A DNA stretch of 64,000 bases from Bythopirellula sp. Its GTDB lineage: Bacteria > Planctomycetota > Planctomycetia > Pirellulales > Lacipirellulaceae. Below are positions 1,115 to 10,558 of the stretch, piece after piece. The notes beneath the pieces were generated by a model. It was not told the DNA's origin. It saw only the letters and a program-made list of their open reading frames with translations, and did not search any database. Every line of letters begins with the position of its first letter. Position 1 is the stretch's first letter. A program made the translations under genes and the position numbers. Location of the stretch: contig OZ244170.1 of NCBI GenBank assembly GCA_965216565.1, positions 1,568,001 through 1,632,000 of the forward strand. Reading direction: 5' to 3'.

Positions 1115-3181
1115 ATGAAGAAGAAACGTCGACAGCGGAAAAACAAGAACAAGAAACCGGCTCATGCGAAGATGGGAGCCGCTCAGAAGCCTGATGCCGA
1201 GGCTCGATCGGCCGCTGGAAAGAAGGGCCCTGGGTTAGTCATGTTTGCGGGACTGCTGGCCGTGGCACTCGCTATCGCTTTTTATGTGGTGCGCTCGTCT
1301 GAGACTCCACAAGAGACAGACGACCAGCAGGCTGTACTTGCTCCCAGCGAAATCGATTCCTCAGAGAAGGCGGCCCGAGTACCGCTCAGGCAGACTTCTT
1401 CCTGGACAGAGCTCGACGATCCTGCCAGCGATGGCTGGGATACCGAAGTGTTTGCTGAGAAAGCAAAAAAGCAGCTGGTAGCTCTTGGGAAAATAATGGT
1501 GGATGTCGAGGAGGTCGACGCAGCCGATGTGAAAAAACTTATCGCCAAGGAATTCGCTTGCGAACCACTACGGCCTGCTAATCTGGTTGCCGTCCACGAC
1601 GATCCCCACTTGAAGATCGAGCGTGCCCCCTCCTCGTCATCTGGCCTAAGTTCCCTGGACCAGTTGCCAGAATCGGAAGAGCAGAAGTATCACGGGGCCG
1701 ACGGACTTGTGCAAGCACTGCGCGATGCTGCGGCTTCCTTTGCAGAAGCCGAGGATTTGCGATTTGAAGTCAAGATATTTCGAGTCTTTCCCGCCCCGGG
1801 CAAAGTGACCACACGCCAGTACTTTTCCATTACTGGCCATACTGAGTCGGGTACATTGGAACAGCACGCAACCTGGGACATCGGTTGGGAAGTAGGGACA
1901 GGCAAATCAAAACCCCATCTCCAGTGGATCCGCGTAGAAGAATTCGAACAATCGGAAAGTCGCAATGCCGAGGAGACTCTTTTTGCCGACTGTACCGAGT
2001 CTGTTCTGGGTGGCAACGATTGCTACACGGAGCAGTTTTTGCGCGGCATGAACTATTGGTACGAGCGAATTCAAGACCGAAGTCCGTTCGGTTTGTTCGC
2101 AAACCCTGGGTTGGCGGTGGGAGATGTGAATGGTGACGGGCTGGACGACCTATACGTCTGTCAGGAGGCCGGTCTCCCGAATCGGCTGTTCGTCCAAAAT
2201 CCTGATGGCTCAGCAACCGATCAGTCGACCTCTTGGGGAGTCGATTGGCTGGAGTCATCTCGGAGCGCGCTCTTGGTCGATTTGGACAACGATTCCGACC
2301 AGGATTTGGTAGTGGCGATTCTTGGTGGAGTGGTCGTGGCTGAGAACAACGGACAAGGGCAATTTCAAATACGAGACGTACTGGCGACCTGCGACGACAC
2401 CATGTCTCTAACTGCGGTTGACTACGACATGGATGGCCGCCTCGATATCTATGTCTGTGCCTATCATCAGAACAAATCACTGGACTCCACTGAACTTACG
2501 GGCATGCCGGGTGCCGCGGAGGGTTTTGTTGTGCATGATGCGAACAATGGAGGAAATAACAGCCTCTTTCGCAATCTGATTTCTAAACAGGGTGAATGGC
2601 AGTTTGAAGACGTTACCAAAGAAGTTGGACTAGACGAGAAAAACTATCGCTGGAGTCTCGCCGCGGCTTGGGACGACTACGACAAGGACGGCGACCAAGA
2701 TCTTTACGTCGCCAACGACTACGGACGCGACCATTTCTATCGCAACGACCTTCTCGGTTCGTCCTCCTCCGATCAGGAACAGAATACGGGGCCGCAGTTC
2801 GTCGACATTTCCGATCTCGCCCACGTAGAAGACAGTGCCACGGGTATGTCGATTACCTGGGGCGATTACGATCGCGATGGATGGATGGACGCCTTGGTCA
2901 GCAATATGTGGTCCTCTGCCGGCCAGCGCGTAACATATCAAAACAATTTCAAGCCCGATGCACCGCAAGACATCAAAAATAGGTATCAACGTCAGGCTAG
3001 GGGCAACACGCTGCTGAAGAATCAAGGCGATGGAACCTTTAGCGACCTCAGCGGCCCAGCTGGAATAGAAATGGGACGCTGGGCTTGGGGTTCGCGGTTT
3101 GCGGATCTTAACAACGATGGCTGGGAAGACCTGTTTGTTTCGAACGGATACATCACGGCAGACGACACTGGGGACTTGTGA
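1115..3181 (+). CDS. Membrane-anchored FG-GAP/VCBS repeat (CRTAC1-like) protein; probably the N-terminal part of a UGA-readthrough protein that continues to 5707
   Basis: Basic N-terminus plus one TM helix; repeats GDVNGDGLDDLYV, DLDNDSDQDL, DYDMDGRLDIYV, DYDKDGDQDLYV, DYDRDGWMD, DLNNDGWEDLFV; ends at an in-frame TGA (3179-3181). Confidence 0.85.
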   Translation: MKKKRRQRKNKNKKPAHAKMGAAQKPDAEARSAAGKKGPGLVMFAGLLAVALAIAFYVVRSSETPQETDDQQAVLAPSEIDSSEKAARVPLRQTSSWTELDDPASDGWDTEVFAEKAKKQLVALGKIMVDVEEVDAADVKKLIAKEFACEPLRPANLVAVHDDPHLKIERAPSSSSGLSSLDQLPESEEQKYHGADGLVQALRDAAASFAEAEDLRFEVKIFRVFPAPGKVTTRQYFSITGHTESGTLEQHATWDIGWEVGTGKSKPHLQWIRVEEFEQSESRNAEETLFADCTESVLGGNDCYTEQFLRGMNYWYERIQDRSPFGLFANPGLAVGDVNGDGLDDLYVCQEAGLPNRLFVQNPDGSATDQSTSWGVDWLESSRSALLVDLDNDSDQDLVVAILGGVVVAENNGQGQFQIRDVLATCDDTMSLTAVDYDMDGRLDIYVCAYHQNKSLDSTELTGMPGAAEGFVVHDANNGGNNSLFRNLISKQGEWQFEDVTKEVGLDEKNYRWSLAAAWDDYDKDGDQDLYVANDYGRDHFYRNDLLGSSSSDQEQNTGPQFVDISDLAHVEDSATGMSITWGDYDRDGWMDALVSNMWSSAGQRVTYQNNFKPDAPQDIKNRYQRQARGNTLLKNQGDGTFSDLSGPAGIEMGRWAWGSRFADLNNDGWEDLFVSNGYITADDTGDL

Positions 3182-3192
3182 AGTTTCTGGTG

Positions 3193-3209
3193 GCGGCAGG
3201 TCGTGTCGC
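3193..3209 (+). promoter_or_regulatory. Candidate bacterial SECIS hairpin
   Basis: GCGGCA-GGTCG-TGTCGC stem-loop starting 11 nt after TGA 3179-3181; shares GCAGGUC with the apex of the E. coli fdhF SECIS. Confidence 0.6.
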
Positions 3210-5707
3210 ATGGAATCACGGATAGCGAAGCGAGTGCCACCGATGCGCTTGAGCACGCTGGGACTGCGCTGACAAACATGATGAGAGGGGGTCGCTCCTT
3301 TAGCGGAAACGAGCGGCACTGTTGTTTTCTCAACACGGGCGGAGAGCCGAACGCGGAGGGACGTTTCGCAAACATCTCCGCGGTCAGCGGTCTTGACTAT
3401 CCCGACGATGGTCGGGCGGTGGCTTTAGTTGATTGGGATCACGATGGCAGACAGGACATGTGGATTTCTAATCGCAATGCCCCTCGTCTCCGACTCATGC
3501 GTAACGAAGTGCCAGGCGAGAATCATTTCCTGGCGCTTCGTCTGGAAGGCAATGGAACAGACACCAATCGCGATGGCATCGGAGCTCGAGTAGAAATCAT
3601 TCTAAGACAAGTTGACGTAGCCGCTCCTGAATCACAGGCGGGCAAGCAGAAACCACAAGTTAAGACTCTGCGTGCCGGAGAAGGGTTGTTAGCCCAATCA
3701 AGCAAATGGCTGCACTTTGGCTTGGGGCAGGCTGACACCATCGAAAGTGTGACCGTCTATTGGCCGGGCGGCGAAGCCGAGCAATTTATCGGTTTCGAAG
3801 CTGACCATCGGTACCGGCTCGTCCAAGGTTCGGCCACAGCTCAGGACGCAGCAATGCCTGCTCGCGCGACTAAGCTTGAACGTTCCAACCAAAATGTTCC
3901 CCCCGCGTCGCAGGTTGCCCGAATTCGGATGGTGCAGTTGTTGACGGTACCGGAATCTCCCTATCAAAGCTTCGATGGACGGCGACGCAAACTCCCGACT
4001 AAGCAAGGAGAATTGCTACTGGTAAACCTGTGGGCCAGTTGGTGCCGCCCCTGTTTAGCTGAACTCACCGAGTTTTCTAATCGCTACGAAGAGCTACAGA
4101 ACGAGGGAATCGAGGTTCTTGCGCTTACGGTCGAAGGTCTTAAGGGAGAAAAAGAAGCAGCCAAGCAAGCGGCAAACCTCGCCGCCAACCGAAAGTTTCC
4201 GTTTCTGGTGGGACAGGCAAGCTCAACATTACTCGCAGATTTCAATTACCTCCATAGTCTTCAGATTCCACTGCTTCGAGAACTGCCGCTGCCATGTAGT
4301 TTCCTGATTGATCGAGAAGGTCGTTTAGCTGCAATCTACAAAGGCCCCGTGTCGGTTGATGCATTACTGGAAGACACTTCCTACAGTAAAGACAGTCGAG
4401 CCGAACGACAATTGCGGTCCGCTTCCATGGCCGGCCAATCGATTCAGCACCCACTCGTAGAACAAGTAGAAGACAATTCAGGCGTGTCGCTTCGTTTTCT
4501 GCTCGCAGAGTATCTTCAACATTCCGGACGCAACGACCAGGCGGCCCAGCAATACGCGGACGTGATTAAGCTCAAGCCCGACAACTCGGGTGCCCATAAT
4601 AACTTGGGTAGCACCCTCTTAGAGCTTGGAAAAGTTGAAGAAGCCGTTAAACATCTTCGGCGTGCCCTCGAACTCAATCCCGAACACCCAGGAGCCCACA
4701 GCAACCTGGCAAACGCGTTACAACGCCAAGGGAAGTCGGAAGACGCAATCGAGCATTTACAACAAGCAATAGAGGACGATCCCGATTTCGCGCAGGCTCA
4801 CTACAACCTGGGAAACACACTCTTGCTACAAGGAAAGGCCGAAGAAGCTTCTCCGCATTACGAGCGAGCCCTTGAGATCGACCCAGACTACGCCCATGCC
4901 CACAGCAATCTGGGGATCGCTTTGCAGCGTCAGGGCAAGATTGAAGAAGCTATCGAACACTATCGGCGTGCACTGCAGATCGAACCAGATTACGCGGACG
5001 CGCATTACAACCTGGGAATTGTTCTCCGAGGTCAGGGGAATACCTCAGAAGCGATCAAACATTACCAACAAGTCGTAAGGATCAAACCCAATTACGCTCA
5101 GGCACACAACAACTTAGGGAACGCAATCCAAGCGGAAGGGAAACTTGAAGAATCCATCACGCATTACCAACGTGCCATTCGGATCAAACCCGATTTCGCC
5201 GAAGCTTATAACAACCTGGGCAATGCGCTACTGGGGCAAAAGAAGATCGCAGAGGCGATCAAGTGCTATCAACAAGCTCTAAAGATCCAACCCAGCTACC
5301 CACAAGCGCACACCAGTCTAGCAGTCGCGTATCAAGCTCGCGGTGATGTCCCCAAAGCTATCCAGCACTACAAGCAAGCGCTCGTTCTAAATCGGGACAA
5401 CCCCATGGCTCTGAACAACCTGGCATGGATTCTGGCAACACATTCAGATTCCAAATTACGCAATGGCTCTCAGGCCGTCATGCTAGCCGAGTATTGTTGT
5501 GGACTGGAGGGACTGCGGGTGTTTGCTACGCTCGACACGCTGTCCGCCGCTTACGCAGAGGCAGGCCGTTTTGAAGAAGCAGTTGAAGCCGCCACCGAGG
5601 CGATCGAAGGAGCAACCGCCGCAGGAAACGAAGAAGTAGCCCAAGCGCTTCGCAAGCGATTAGAGCTGTACCGTCAGGGCACTCCCTATCGAGAACCGAA
5701 GAAATGA
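3203..5707 (+). CDS. FG-GAP + ASPIC/UnbV + TlpA-like thioredoxin + TPR repeat protein; probably the C-terminal part of the 1115-5707 readthrough product
   Basis: DWDHDGRQD repeat; NRDGIGARV...LHFGLG...WPGG (ASPIC/UnbV); LVNLWASWCRPC; about 9 TPRs (AHNNLG/AHYNLG); same frame as the ORF starting at 1115. Confidence 0.85.
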   Translation: MSHGITDSEASATDALEHAGTALTNMMRGGRSFSGNERHCCFLNTGGEPNAEGRFANISAVSGLDYPDDGRAVALVDWDHDGRQDMWISNRNAPRLRLMRNEVPGENHFLALRLEGNGTDTNRDGIGARVEIILRQVDVAAPESQAGKQKPQVKTLRAGEGLLAQSSKWLHFGLGQADTIESVTVYWPGGEAEQFIGFEADHRYRLVQGSATAQDAAMPARATKLERSNQNVPPASQVARIRMVQLLTVPESPYQSFDGRRRKLPTKQGELLLVNLWASWCRPCLAELTEFSNRYEELQNEGIEVLALTVEGLKGEKEAAKQAANLAANRKFPFLVGQASSTLLADFNYLHSLQIPLLRELPLPCSFLIDREGRLAAIYKGPVSVDALLEDTSYSKDSRAERQLRSASMAGQSIQHPLVEQVEDNSGVSLRFLLAEYLQHSGRNDQAAQQYADVIKLKPDNSGAHNNLGSTLLELGKVEEAVKHLRRALELNPEHPGAHSNLANALQRQGKSEDAIEHLQQAIEDDPDFAQAHYNLGNTLLLQGKAEEASPHYERALEIDPDYAHAHSNLGIALQRQGKIEEAIEHYRRALQIEPDYADAHYNLGIVLRGQGNTSEAIKHYQQVVRIKPNYAQAHNNLGNAIQAEGKLEESITHYQRAIRIKPDFAEAYNNLGNALLGQKKIAEAIKCYQQALKIQPSYPQAHTSLAVAYQARGDVPKAIQHYKQALVLNRDNPMALNNLAWILATHSDSKLRNGSQAVMLAEYCCGLEGLRVFATLDTLSAAYAEAGRFEEAVEAATEAIEGATAAGNEEVAQALRKRLELYRQGTPYREPKK

Positions 5708-6416: not shown

Positions 6417-8111
6417 ATGGCAACAAGCATAGAGAACAATCCTTTCTTGGACCAATTCGCAGACCTGAGCTCATTACCAGGTTTTCAACCGCAAGGACTT
6501 TGTCACTTCGACAAGGACCATCGGATCGTGGTGATGAACCGGCAATTTCAAACGCTGTACGGGTTACCCGAGAGTCTGCTCAAGCCGGGCACACATCGGG
6601 ATGAAGTCATCTCAGCAATTGAAGATGCCACCTTGCGTGATTTACTGACGGACGTAACGTCCAACCCATGCGGATTCGGATCGACGAATCGGGTTTGGCA
6701 AACTGAACAAGGACGGCTGATTGCCGTCTCTTGCGAACTCTTGCCCGATGGCAGTTACACAACCTTGCATGAAGACATCACCACGTCGAATCAAGAGAAT
6801 GCGAAATACGCTAGACTTGCGACTCATGACCCTTTGACAGGATTACTCAACCGCCAGGCGTTTGACGATGAATTGCAACGGGTGCTTTCGCAAAACGAGA
6901 GCATGAAAGAACATGCCCTGCTGTACATCGACCTCGACCGATTCAAAATAGTTAACGACACTCTCGGTCACCCCATCGGCGATCAAGCACTGATAGCGAT
7001 TACCGAGCGGATTCGAAATGTCATCCGGTCTGAAGACAAGCTTGCCCGACTGGGGGGCGATGAGTTTGCGTTGCTGCAGGTGGAGGCGCAACAACCAGAT
7101 GCATCACGCTCTGCTGCCCGCCGGATTATTGATACCGTCGCTCAACCTCTCTCAATCAGTGGACACTCCGTGAATCTCGGTGCCAGCGTGGGCATAGCTA
7201 TCGCCCCCTTCGACGCTGATAACGCAGAGCTGCTGCTGCAGAATGCCGACCTGGCTCTCTACCGCGCGAAGCACGATGGCCGCAACACATTGCGTTACTT
7301 CGAGCCAGAAATGAGCAGACGTCTAGTCTTACGGAGAAAACTGGAATGCGAGCTTCGTTCGGCAATTGAGGCGGGTCAGTTCGAAATGCTCTACCAGCCC
7401 GTAATGAACCTTAACTCGCAGACAATCGAGTGCGTGGAAGGGCTCGTTCGGTGGCAGCATCCCGAGCTAGGGCTCGTCTCGCCCGACGACTTCATACCTC
7501 TCGCTGAAGAGACTGGCTTAATCAATCCACTCGGTGAATGGGTTCTCCGGCAAGTTTGTCGAGAAGCCGCTGAATGGGACGAAGGGATTCGCGTAGCGGT
7601 TAATGTATCTCCTGTCCAGCTTCGTTGTCGGATGTTTGCGTCGACTGTACAGAACATTCTCCAGGAAACGGGACTCGATCCTTCGCGCCTCGAAGTGGAG
7701 ATTACCGAAACAGCGCTGGTGGCAGATATAGAATTGACGATCGCAATCCTTACGGAGTTGCGTCAATTCGGAGTAAAAGTCGCCATGGACGATTTTGGCA
7801 CGGGCTACTCCTCGATCAGCTATTTGCGACGCTTTCCGTTCGACAAAATTAAGATCGACCGATCTTTTGTTTCCGGAGTAGATGCCGATCCCGAAGCTGC
7901 TGCTCTGATAAAGATGATCGCTGCTTTGGGGGTAAGCCTGGCGGTCTCGACAACCGCCGAAGGTGTCGAAACAGATTCCGAATTGGATTTGGTTCGTCAA
8001 GCAGGTTGCACCCACATCCAGGGGTATCATCTAAGCAAACCTGTCAACGCGGGAGCAATCGTCGCTCTCCTGGAATCAAACAAAGATGACAAGACTTACT
8101 TGGGAGAATAA
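6417..8111 (+). CDS. PAS-fold GGDEF-EAL diguanylate cyclase/phosphodiesterase
   Basis: HDPLTGLLNR, DLDRFK, RSED I-site then GGDEF, EGLVRW (EAL variant), DDFGTGYSS, IKIDRSF. Confidence 0.92.
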   Translation: MATSIENNPFLDQFADLSSLPGFQPQGLCHFDKDHRIVVMNRQFQTLYGLPESLLKPGTHRDEVISAIEDATLRDLLTDVTSNPCGFGSTNRVWQTEQGRLIAVSCELLPDGSYTTLHEDITTSNQENAKYARLATHDPLTGLLNRQAFDDELQRVLSQNESMKEHALLYIDLDRFKIVNDTLGHPIGDQALIAITERIRNVIRSEDKLARLGGDEFALLQVEAQQPDASRSAARRIIDTVAQPLSISGHSVNLGASVGIAIAPFDADNAELLLQNADLALYRAKHDGRNTLRYFEPEMSRRLVLRRKLECELRSAIEAGQFEMLYQPVMNLNSQTIECVEGLVRWQHPELGLVSPDDFIPLAEETGLINPLGEWVLRQVCREAAEWDEGIRVAVNVSPVQLRCRMFASTVQNILQETGLDPSRLEVEITETALVADIELTIAILTELRQFGVKVAMDDFGTGYSSISYLRRFPFDKIKIDRSFVSGVDADPEAAALIKMIAALGVSLAVSTTAEGVETDSELDLVRQAGCTHIQGYHLSKPVNAGAIVALLESNKDDKTYLGE

Positions 8112-8114
8112 CAA

Positions 8115-8534
8115 ATGTTTCGACGATTACTTTACACCAGCCATGCGGCAGAAGGCGTGGATTCAAGACAGGTCTTCGATATCATACGAACATCCCACAA
8201 TCGCAATAGCCGTGCTGGTCTGACTGGAGGCCTACTATTCGTGGACGGCTATTTCTATCAGTTGTTGGAAGGACTGCGGGGCGCTGTCGAGCAAAGGTAC
8301 GATCGAATTGCGGCGGACCCAAGGCACCACAGTGTTGAGCTGCGTCTCGACGAGACGGCTGACGAGCCGATCTTCGCCAATGACTGGATGGCACTTCGCG
8401 ATGCTTCTCAAATCGACGATTCGATTCTAGCCCATTTTGGTTGTTCACCAGGGTCGCCACCCGAAGCCATGCAAGACGACCAAGTGTTTGAGTTCTTGCT
8501 CACCTGCTTTGAGAAGGAAATAGTTCATTGCTGA
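8115..8534 (+). CDS. Stand-alone BLUF blue-light sensor protein
   Basis: LLYTS, N..GLTG.L, FYQLLEG, DPRH and WM motifs; conserved Tyr/Gln/Met present. Confidence 0.92.
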   Translation: MFRRLLYTSHAAEGVDSRQVFDIIRTSHNRNSRAGLTGGLLFVDGYFYQLLEGLRGAVEQRYDRIAADPRHHSVELRLDETADEPIFANDWMALRDASQIDDSILAHFGCSPGSPPEAMQDDQVFEFLLTCFEKEIVHC

Positions 8535-8667: not shown

Positions 8668-9600
8668 TTACGAGTTATGGCTTGTCGCTGCTTCCTGCAT
8701 CAACTGCCCCGCGCGGTACGAGCTGCGGACGAGGGGTCCTGCGGCGACGCCGCCGAAGCCCATCGCGCGGGCTTCGCTTTCCCACTCGGCAAATTGGTCG
8801 GGGTGCACGTAGCGATCGACCGGCAAGAATCGCGTTCCCGGTTTTCCCGGGGCGAGGTATTGGCCGAGCGTTAAGAGTTCCACGCCGGCGTCGCGCAACA
8901 GCCGCATGGCTGAGACCACTTCCTCATCGGTTTCGCCCAGGCCGACCATAATACTGCTTTTGGTCCACATGTCGGGACGCAACCGTTTGGCGCGCTGCAG
9001 AACTTCCAAGCTTTGTGCAAAGGAAGCCTTGGGATCTCGGACAAGGGAATCGAGTCGCGGAACGCACTCCACGTTGTGGGCAAAAACGGCGAGTGGAACT
9101 CCGTCGAGAAGATGTGCCAATGCCTCCCAATTGCCATCCAGGTCGCTGGAGAGCAGCTCCACGTCGGTGTTCGGGAGTCGATTTTTGACTGCCACCACGC
9201 ACTTCCTGTAGTGATCGGCACCACCATCGTCCAGGTCATCGCGATTTACTACCGTGATCACCACATGCTCTAGCTCCATCCGCTCTACGGCGTCGGCCAG
9301 TCTTTCCGGCTCGTCGACTTCAAGTGGCGGCGGTTGTCGCAGGGTTTCGACCGAACAGAATCGGCAGCCGCGGGTACATTCCTTGCCCGCCACCATAAAC
9401 GTGGCCGTCCCTCGTGCCCAGCAGTCGTGAATGTTGGGGCAGCGAGCCTCTTCGCACACGGTGTGTAGCTCGTTGCCGAGCACGGTAAGCTGCGTGCTAT
9501 TGAAGGTACCCTGCGCACGCCCCGTCGGCAGGTTCACGCGCAGCCATTCGGGCAGACGTGGACGGGAAAAGACGATTTCAAGCGGCGGGCTGTTTTCCAT
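8668..9600 (-). CDS. lipA: Lipoyl synthase
   Basis: CEEARCPNIHDC, CTRGCRFC radical-SAM motif, C-terminal RSSY. Confidence 0.95.
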   Translation of the reverse strand: MENSPPLEIVFSRPRLPEWLRVNLPTGRAQGTFNSTQLTVLGNELHTVCEEARCPNIHDCWARGTATFMVAGKECTRGCRFCSVETLRQPPPLEVDEPERLADAVERMELEHVVITVVNRDDLDDGGADHYRKCVVAVKNRLPNTDVELLSSDLDGNWEALAHLLDGVPLAVFAHNVECVPRLDSLVRDPKASFAQSLEVLQRAKRLRPDMWTKSSIMVGLGETDEEVVSAMRLLRDAGVELLTLGQYLAPGKPGTRFLPVDRYVHPDQFAEWESEARAMGFGGVAAGPLVRSSYRAGQLMQEAATSHNS

Positions 9601-9616
9601 CAGACTAATTCTACGC

Positions 9617-10558
9617 TTAGCCTGTCAAACCTTCAAACAGTGGCGTTGAGAGATAACGTTCACCCAGGCTGCACATGATGGTGACAATCCGCTTGCCAGC
9701 CATCTCGGGTCGAGCCGCCACTTTGGCTGCGGCACACATGTTCGCCCCACTGCTGATGCCGCCGAGGATGCCCTCTTCGCTCGCCAATCGTCGGGCCCAT
9801 TGGAAAGCTTCCTCGTTACTGACAGTGACCGTTTCGTCAACGATCGAGGTATCCAAGTTGCCGGGAATAAATCCAGCGCCGATGCCCTGAATTTTGTGCG
9901 GGCCAGGTTCTCCGCCACTGATGACCGGTGAATCGACCGGCTCGACAGCAATCGCTTTGAACTCTGGATTCTTTGATTTCAAGAATCGAGAAGCTCCTGT
10001 AATGGTGCCACCGGTGCCGACGCCGGCAATAATCGCATCGATCTTTTGTCCGGAGTCTTCCCAAATTTCAGGACCGGTGGTCGCTTCGTGGATTGCCGGG
10101 TTGGCTGGGTTCTCGAATTGCTGGGGCATCCAAGCGTTCTTGCCGGTTTCCACCAACTCGGTCGCTTTGGAAATGGCACCTTTCATGCCCTTGGCGGCGG
10201 GTGTCAAAACGATCTCCGCACCGAGAATTCGCAATAGGGCACGACGCTCTAGAGACATCGATTCTGGCATCGTCAATGTCAGCTTGTAGCCCTTGGCCGC
10301 ACAGACAAACGCCAAGGCGATCCCCGTATTGCCACTGGTGGGCTCGATGATGTGCGTGTCGGCGTTCACCTTGCCATCTTTCTCCCCCGCGGCGATCATT
10401 GCGGCGCCGATACGATCTTTCACGCTATTCAGCGGATTGAAAAACTCGCACTTGGCAAAAACGGTTGCGTGGCCTTCGGGGACCAGACGGTTAATCTGAA
10501 TCATGGGCGTATCGCCGACGGCTGCTGCTGCGTGCTCAAAAGTTTTGTTGCGGGGCAT
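9617..10558 (-). CDS. cysK: Cysteine synthase A
   Basis: SVKDRIG (PLP lysine), EPTSGNTG, GTGGT, PHKIQGIG, GERYLST. Confidence 0.95.
   Translation of the reverse strand: MPRNKTFEHAAAAVGDTPMIQINRLVPEGHATVFAKCEFFNPLNSVKDRIGAAMIAAGEKDGKVNADTHIIEPTSGNTGIALAFVCAAKGYKLTLTMPESMSLERRALLRILGAEIVLTPAAKGMKGAISKATELVETGKNAWMPQQFENPANPAIHEATTGPEIWEDSGQKIDAIIAGVGTGGTITGASRFLKSKNPEFKAIAVEPVDSPVISGGEPGPHKIQGIGAGFIPGNLDTSIVDETVTVSNEEAFQWARRLASEEGILGGISSGANMCAAAKVAARPEMAGKRIVTIMCSLGERYLSTPLFEGLTG

Follow-up and report, generated by a model that had tools for sequence, protein, structure and literature searches.

A UGA codon splits a conserved reading frame

Near the start of the window – the 64-kb stretch of DNA analyzed here, part of a 5.2-Mb genome – two open reading frames occupy a common frame (positions 1115–3181, 688 aa, and 3203–5707, 834 aa). 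A TGA at codon 689 (3179–3181) is the sole internal stop of the 1530-codon frame that spans both, and public collections store this frame as two proteins, corresponding to the 688-aa and 834-aa halves. The initial annotation had described two ORFs separated by the TGA alone, with FG-GAP repeats on either side of it. Both observations hold: translation with UGA read as U gives 1530 residues with one internal TGA, and Pfam agrees that FG-GAP repeats flank the site. The features of the joined gene are collected in Table 1. No Rfam family was found within the window at gathering thresholds, and promoter and terminator scans gave chance-level results.

The TGA is not an assembly error. Logan contigs built from sequencing runs also contain it. 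Those of two runs on a single sample, which may be where the assembly came from, are identical over positions 2600–3800, and a contig from a different study, representing a close strain, spans 2600–3505 with eight other letters and an unchanged TGA and hairpin. Each of the four runs also has contigs of other sequences that align over 3173–3210 alone – implying that this stretch is unusually conserved at the DNA level.

We considered whether the UGA might be read as tryptophan, glycine or cysteine, through reassignment or leaky read-through, or whether the split frame reflects a pseudogene or an error. Glycine at the corresponding site in 12 of the best 120 homologs would be compatible with such a reading. 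However, 447 long stop-free stretches of the genome (shadow frames included) terminate in TGA, in line with the initial view that the genetic code is not reassigned; tRNA-Sec is the only UCA-anticodon tRNA found in the genome at default stringency; and the TGA is kept across phyla as well as in the run contigs. We regard these explanations as the least probable of all those considered here.

A check of orthologue codons proposed in the initial annotation found the TGA conserved in both paralogs and orthologs. Two paralogs in the same genome, 50–52% identical over the core, carry the same TGA and hairpin; the neighboring genes of the three copies appear unrelated on inspection. Among 61 genomes (this one and 60 relatives), 20 carry the gene, and each of their 55 matches contains one TGA. 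In all 30 of these matches that were fetched, the TGA lies at the codon-689 position, and neither TAA nor TAG was reported within the 55 matches. Strong paralog expansion was observed in genomes G045 and G044, with up to 12 matches in one genome, several of them in tandem on one contig.

Table 1. Features of the probable selenoprotein gene and of related loci in the same genome (G000). Positions without a prefix are those of the window.
Feature	Position	Strand	Basis or remark
Single CDS with UGA read through, 1530 aa, second TGA as terminator	1115..5707	+	ORF/translation analysis
Predicted N-terminal membrane anchor, ~residues 41–59, after a basic stretch	1235..1291	+	Only hydropathy peak of the protein
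NTF2/SnoaL-like domain, ~residues 105–285	1427..1969	+	Model pLDDT 90.1
CRTAC1-like FG-GAP beta-propeller and ASPIC/UnbV (TTR-like), ~residues 280–906, across the UGA	1952..3832	+	Pfam FG-GAP_3, UnbV_ASPIC
In-frame TGA, predicted selenocysteine 689, at a helix start within a long loop inserted in one propeller blade	3179..3181	+	
SECIS-like hairpin, 6-bp stem, 5-nt loop beginning GG, loop 17 nt after the UGA	3193..3209	+	
Cys736, candidate partner of Sec689	3320..3322	+	
TlpA/ResA-type thioredoxin domain, CxxC = Cys977 (4043) and Cys980 (4052)	3965..4333	+	Pfam AhpC-TSA 951–1073; Foldseek ResA, TlpA
TPR array	4493..5704	+	Far shorter in both paralogs
Paralog with same TGA, hairpin, Cys736 and CxxC	G000:C1:1243248	-	Short TPR region
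Paralog with same TGA, hairpin, Cys736 and CxxC	G000:C1:4509442	+	Short TPR region
Peroxiredoxin-like lipoprotein, in-frame TGA in a W-U-x-x-C motif and downstream hairpin	G000:C1:1637274	+	~5 kb past window end; likely selenoprotein of a known type

A hairpin downstream of the UGA is conserved as RNA

The hairpin begins 11 nt after the UGA, at the coordinates and with the spacer first annotated; its arms (3193–3198 and 3204–3209) enclose the loop GGUCG (3199–3203). A comparison with Escherichia coli fdhF, also made in the initial annotation, proved sound: FdhF likewise has an in-frame UGA and a SECIS hairpin starting after 11 nt, and both hairpins contain the heptamer GCAGGUC, although in fdhF it lies one base farther from the UGA. 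The bacterial SECIS consensus given in PMC13188914 specifies a loop of 3–9 nt with a G in its first two positions, a stem of 4–16 bp, a loop 16–37 nt from the UGA, and an MFE of at most -7.5. The element fits this consensus: applying the criteria directly, we found a 5-nt loop beginning GG on a 6-bp stem at 17 nt and an MFE of -10.7 for the 45 nt following the UGA (-7.3 for the bare 17-mer). The single-sequence folding energy is by itself unexceptional (z -0.79, no better than shuffles), so we drew the significance of the hairpin from comparative data.

A synonymous-blind pattern search of GTDB identified at least 121 TGA loci. Among the matches listed, 120 are homologous, distributed over Planctomycetota (56), Verrucomicrobiota (49), Acidobacteriota (11), Pseudomonadota (2), Myxococcota (1) and one unlabelled genome. 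Removing 7 of the 121 that failed a flank filter left 114 TGA loci; as controls, 120 sense-codon homologs were reduced to 99 by the same filter (18 removed) and by the exclusion of 3 duplicates, both sets comprising the matches listed. The flank-filter failures were mostly homologs that the filter missed, and L111, L179 and L200 were unrelated. Most of the control set belongs to one clade, and kin are not independent.

The 6-bp stem is present in 109 of the 114 TGA loci and in 1 of the 99 sense-codon homologs that encode the same WRQV peptide (matches listed). This disposes of a caveat raised initially, namely that the hairpin might be a chance product of the WRQV codons. GC3 is equal in the two sets (0.67), and the difference lies in synonymous choice: GTC is used in 109 TGA loci versus 15 controls and GTG in 109 versus 24, while CGC is found in 0 versus 28. 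TGA forms also fix CAG (109/114) and TCG (112/114; matches listed), whereas the synonymous positions of the WRQV codons are free in sense-codon homologs.

The TGA pattern itself had fixed some of the stem bases, and we therefore analyzed a second set of loci obtained by protein search. In these 46 loci, 44 of them distinct, 99.6% of cells pair, and one base pair occurs as GU, AU, GC and CG types. Both sides have changed at two of the pairs, and the pairing is lost when the partners are slid against each other. In six distant loci, two amino acids have been swapped together (QVV to RVT or RVA) with the stem kept. By these patterns, the hairpin is kept as RNA beyond what the protein constrains. 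In one homolog with an AAC (Asn) codon at the site (L312, G562:C458), a perfect 6-bp hairpin is kept and Cys736 is absent; this locus is possibly a recent loss of selenocysteine.

The three codons that follow the TGA were left free by the search pattern. In the 114 TGA loci (matches listed), the first encodes Ser in 112, using four different codons, the second Phe and the third either Phe or Tyr; all three vary synonymously, never become a stop, and are therefore translated. This bears on the possibility of a split gene, in which translation would stop at the TGA and re-initiate at the conserved GTG at 3203 to give two subunits. Databases do call two proteins, and GTG or ATG stands at the 3203 codon in 111 of the 114 TGA loci (matches listed). 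We nonetheless consider a split gene very improbable: the Ser-Phe-Phe/Tyr codons between the TGA and the GTG vary synonymously without stops, gaps are absent in the 46 protein-found loci, the stop is always TGA and its presence follows the sel genes. The second half also lacks a hydrophobic anchor and would presumably not be co-exported.

The region immediately around the TGA shows a further bias. Within 3176–3181, the Leu codon directly ahead of the site is TTG in 91 of the 114 TGA loci, compared with 23 of the 99 controls (matches listed), and in 90 of the 114 the TGA region could form 5 or more of 6 pairs with the 3' arm of the hairpin. These features, together with the tolerance of intact homologs for Asn, Ala, Ser, Gly and Glu at the site, would suit a UGA that acts mainly as a selenium-dependent switch, yielding full-length protein with selenium and a truncated product otherwise, with selenocysteine chemistry secondary. 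We consider this improbable. Conservation of the TGA and of the stem partly accounts for the alternative pairing, which is also less marked in Acidobacteriota, where the codon before the TGA is mostly CTN; the truncated product would be an incomplete propeller; and selenocysteine co-occurs with redox cysteines, as described below.

Intact homologs rarely carry cysteine at the site

Intact homologs are continuous across the UGA position. In the best 120 of 2329 matches, the residue at the site is Asn (54), Ala (26), Ser (16), Gly (12), Glu (5), Cys (3), His (1) or Asp (1), with 2 gaps. The 3 Cys among 118 intact homologs are known from protein entries, in which a U may be stored as C, and Cys was found at none of 20 sense-codon genome loci that were read. 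In one set of 20 regions that were read, 14 could be parsed, and those left out comprised 5 sense and 1 TGA. The predominance of Asn, Ala, Ser and Gly, with Cys, which usually replaces Sec, in just 3 of 118, weighs against the selenocysteine reading and suggests that the propeller fold needs no chalcogen at site 689. It also exposes a blind spot in searches that depend on Sec/Cys pairs.

On a tree of 83 rows, built by a quick method with midpoint rooting and containing one very long branch, the Sec label must change 8 times, and strong branches force at least 5 of these changes. Several non-Sec rows are nested among Sec rows. This pattern fits repeated loss of selenocysteine. Among the acidobacterial non-Sec homologs (P0007, P0010, P0079 and relatives), a twin-arginine-like signal often takes the place of the membrane anchor, and the thioredoxin motif is degenerate in most.

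The UGA-containing gene follows the selenocysteine machinery

The initial annotation had proposed a check of the genome for selA, selB, selC and selD, and all four are present. They form one cluster (G000 683684–689624) that includes selA (TIGR00474, 510 bits), an adjoining selB-like ORF, selD and tRNA-Sec (72.6 bits). Assignment of selA was by HMM, and that of selB and selD was from their translations. The SelD has a Cys in its motif and, judged by eye, an N-terminal fusion to an FAD-dependent oxidoreductase-like domain. A second 'tRNA-SeC' reported by relaxed ARAGORN at G000 1235486 is poorly formed and lies inside an ORF, and was rejected. Simple scans, which may miss others, identified one other likely selenoprotein in the genome – a peroxiredoxin-like lipoprotein with a UxxC motif – and a simple scan for FdhA found none above cut-off.

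Apart from the genome studied here, all genomes with a TGA form in three samples encode Sec machinery (19/19, 15/15 and 20/20). Among the relatives, selB was found in 18 of the 19 that carry the gene and in 8 of the 41 that lack it; the one carrier in which it was not found (G058) has selA and tRNA-Sec. In the sample from the same phylum, where the TGA position was checked in a minority of TGA rows, selA is present in 20 of 20 TGA genomes against a background of 187/300, and also in all 4 genomes with sense forms only. In Acidobacteriota, selA is present in 15 of 15 TGA genomes versus 10 of 14 sense-only genomes, with a background of 195/251 (G088 included). Fisher tests on the three samples gave 3e-8, 5e-5 and 0.02, values that kinship inflates, and the high selA background in two of the three samples lessens the weight of the co-occurrence. 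The phylum searches scored 10–12 candidates per genome and therefore undercount.

Comparative genomics shows that the UGA is translated, that the hairpin is under RNA-level selection and that the trait follows the Sec machinery. No DNA-level refutation test set out in the initial annotation went against its reading. With coding sequence on both sides of an in-frame UGA at a conserved position, we conclude, with a probability of roughly 0.9, that the two ORFs form a single gene in which UGA 689 is decoded as selenocysteine, and that this gene belongs to a bacterial selenoprotein family not yet catalogued.

The read-through product is predicted to fold around a CRTAC1-like propeller

We modeled residues 99–1129 of the read-through product with AlphaFold2, placing Cys at the Sec position (pLDDT 91.2, pTM 0.94). 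According to the model, the product folds as one unit, with an NTF2-like domain ahead of the CRTAC1-like propeller/TTR core and a TlpA domain after it. The N-terminal NTF2/SnoaL-like domain was absent from the initial annotation; its best structural match is LinA 3a76 (Z 12.4, rmsd 3.2, 138 aligned), followed closely by many NTF2-like entries. The core, an FG-GAP propeller followed by ASPIC/UnbV, matches CRTAC1 (PDB 9etn; Z 39.0, rmsd 2.3, 463 aligned, 21% identity) over model positions 182–808, a range that takes in the Sec at model position 591. In the model's secondary structure, a long loop connects two strands of one blade; Sec689 lies where a helix of this loop begins, and Cys736 stands at the beginning of the strand that comes next.

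The thioredoxin domain predicted in the initial annotation is borne out by a Pfam match to AhpC-TSA, structural matches to ResA and TlpA, and an intact CxxC. The protein shares the WxxWCxxC domain with TlpA/ResA thioredoxins; it differs from them in that the domain is fused within a 1530-aa protein and the Sec lies outside the thioredoxin motif. One homolog (P0003) falls below the cut-offs of the TlpA/ResA NCBIfam models, and NCBIfam holds no model for the propeller region or for the family.

Upstream of the predicted anchor, residues 1–39 include 15 K/R and 2 D/E, and both paralogs have a similar basic-plus-hydrophobic N-terminus. By the type II topology rule, the C-terminus would lie outside the membrane.

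Co-occurring cysteines suggest an intramolecular redox relay

Residue conservation points to Cys736 as the candidate partner of Sec689. Cys occupies this position in 81 of the 114 TGA loci, compared with 0 of 96 loci that have a sense codon (matches listed), and all 3 homologs with Cys at 689 also have Cys736. The initial annotation had drawn attention to a CC pair here; its first member is indeed typical of TGA forms, but the second, Cys737, is variable (41/114, matches listed) and its role is probably structural. All 46 TGA loci for which long flanks were available retain the TlpA CxxC. Conversely, 56 of 64 non-Cys homologs lack both the CxxC and Cys736. It is this residue co-occurrence that suggests a redox relay. 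Weighing against the relay are the roughly three in ten TGA loci that lack Cys736, the retention of the CxxC in 7 of the 64 non-Cys homologs, and the origin of most controls in one clade. The genome also contains a DsbD_TM match.

A mechanism consistent with these patterns can be outlined. SelB bound to the hairpin would deliver Sec-tRNA at UGA 689, giving a membrane-anchored and probably periplasmic product in which TPRs follow the NTF2-like domain, the CRTAC1-like propeller/TTR core and the TlpA domain. Its exposed redox residue would be Sec689, carried on a loop of the propeller; this residue would attack or sense an extracytoplasmic disulfide or oxidant and, in most members, be resolved by Cys736 through a selenenylsulfide. 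The CxxC of the TlpA domain in the same protein would then re-reduce the Sec689–Cys736 pair, with electrons supplied by a DsbD/CcdA-type membrane protein along the DsbD/TlpA electron path. The substrate might be held by the TPR array or the NTF2-like pocket. Provided that selenocysteine is inserted, we put the chances as even that the protein is such a thiol/selenol oxidoreductase module, with an exposed Sec689, a Cys736 partner in most members, recycling by the TlpA CxxC and a DsbD/CcdA-type donor.

Selenocysteine could instead be inserted without forming a pair with Cys736, serving as a metal ligand, as a catalytic nucleophile, or as a direct partner of the TlpA CxxC or of an external protein. 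That 33 of 114 TGA loci lack Cys736 (matches listed), that the CxxC is kept in 46 of 46, and that the NTF2-like domain could be an enzyme pocket all make this a possible reading, if a less probable one. The presence of Cys736 in 0 of 96 sense-codon controls and in 3 of 3 Cys-689 homologs favors the Sec689–Cys736 pair.

Taking these observations together, we tentatively propose, at somewhat less than even odds, a CRTAC1-fold selenoprotein family almost without Cys counterparts, whose members (up to 12 matches per genome) would each be a self-contained extracytoplasmic relay from Sec689/Cys736 to CxxC. The family may be a main reason why Sec machinery persists in genomes that, like the present one, lack Sec-FdhA and carry a Cys-type SelD; on loss of selenocysteine, the gene would tend to vanish or to drop all three redox sites, not to switch to Cys.

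Relationship to known proteins and earlier candidates

The propeller and TTR-like core are common to CRTAC1 (9etn) and to bacterial FG-GAP/ASPIC-UnbV proteins. Beyond this core, the protein described here has a membrane anchor, an NTF2-like domain, a TlpA domain, TPRs and a helical insert that bears the Sec. A partial analogy is provided by plant SOQ1 (bioRxiv 10.1101/2021.03.16.435614), which is membrane-anchored, combines a thioredoxin-like domain with a beta-propeller and has been proposed to perform intramolecular disulfide exchange. We view this as analogy, not membership: SOQ1 has a six-bladed NHL propeller and another domain order, and selenocysteine is not mentioned in the parts of the preprint drawn on here, whereas the repeats of the present protein are FG-GAP and its best fold match is CRTAC1.

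Unlike catalogued SelB/SECIS selenoproteins, the protein has no UxxC or CxxU motif at its Sec, and the rarity of Cys homologs sets the family apart from the rule stated in the part of PMC13188914 considered here. By their labels, none of the 119 families in that 2026 catalogue is an FG-GAP, VCBS, CRTAC1 or propeller family. A term search of the deep-Sep paper and its supplements (PMC12013277) returned no mention of the family, nor is there any in the BSepDB passages and the part of its supplement consulted (PMC13326102).

Related candidates have nevertheless been listed before. Table S9 of PMC4807772 (PLoS One 2016) contains four planctomycete ASPIC-UnbV/FG-GAP gene pairs split by an in-frame UGA, with a SECIS called in three of the four and Gly at the site in the closest Acidobacteriaceae match. 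The table labels them 'hypothetical' only, and the paper's selenoprotein section and two supplementary texts make no mention of ASPIC-UnbV/FG-GAP candidates. They carry the same domain labels as the present gene and, in the parts of that paper seen here, come with no covariation, co-occurrence, structure or mechanism. Matched by description, the four very probably belong to the same family, and the Gly at their site agrees with the Gly forms observed here. The initial annotation described this fold as one not known to be an established selenoprotein family; with these earlier candidates, the novelty is lower than was assumed. Very likely, the gene represents a selenoprotein family that is built on a CRTAC1-like propeller and absent from the catalogue; a supplement had proposed it once, and codon-level, phylogenomic and structural evidence backs it here.

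With these results, the bacterial selenoproteome of Planctomycetota, Verrucomicrobiota and Acidobacteriota would gain a large multi-copy family, and a two-gene annotation would be corrected – an error that probably recurs in relatives. For bacterial CRTAC1-like proteins, they offer a testable redox hypothesis with three named sites. The family also provides a natural test of why selenocysteine persists where cysteine hardly substitutes.

Neighboring genes

Farther along the window, genes recognized by eye have no evident link to the probable selenoprotein gene: a GGDEF/EAL protein followed by a BLUF-like ORF (6417–8534), a lipoyl synthase-like gene (8668–9600, - strand) and a cysteine synthase gene (9617–10558, - strand). 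About 5 kb from one paralog, at G000:C1:1234000–1236351 (+ strand), lies an ORF that by eye resembles a cysteine desulfurase/selenocysteine lyase and has a rhodanese-like end.
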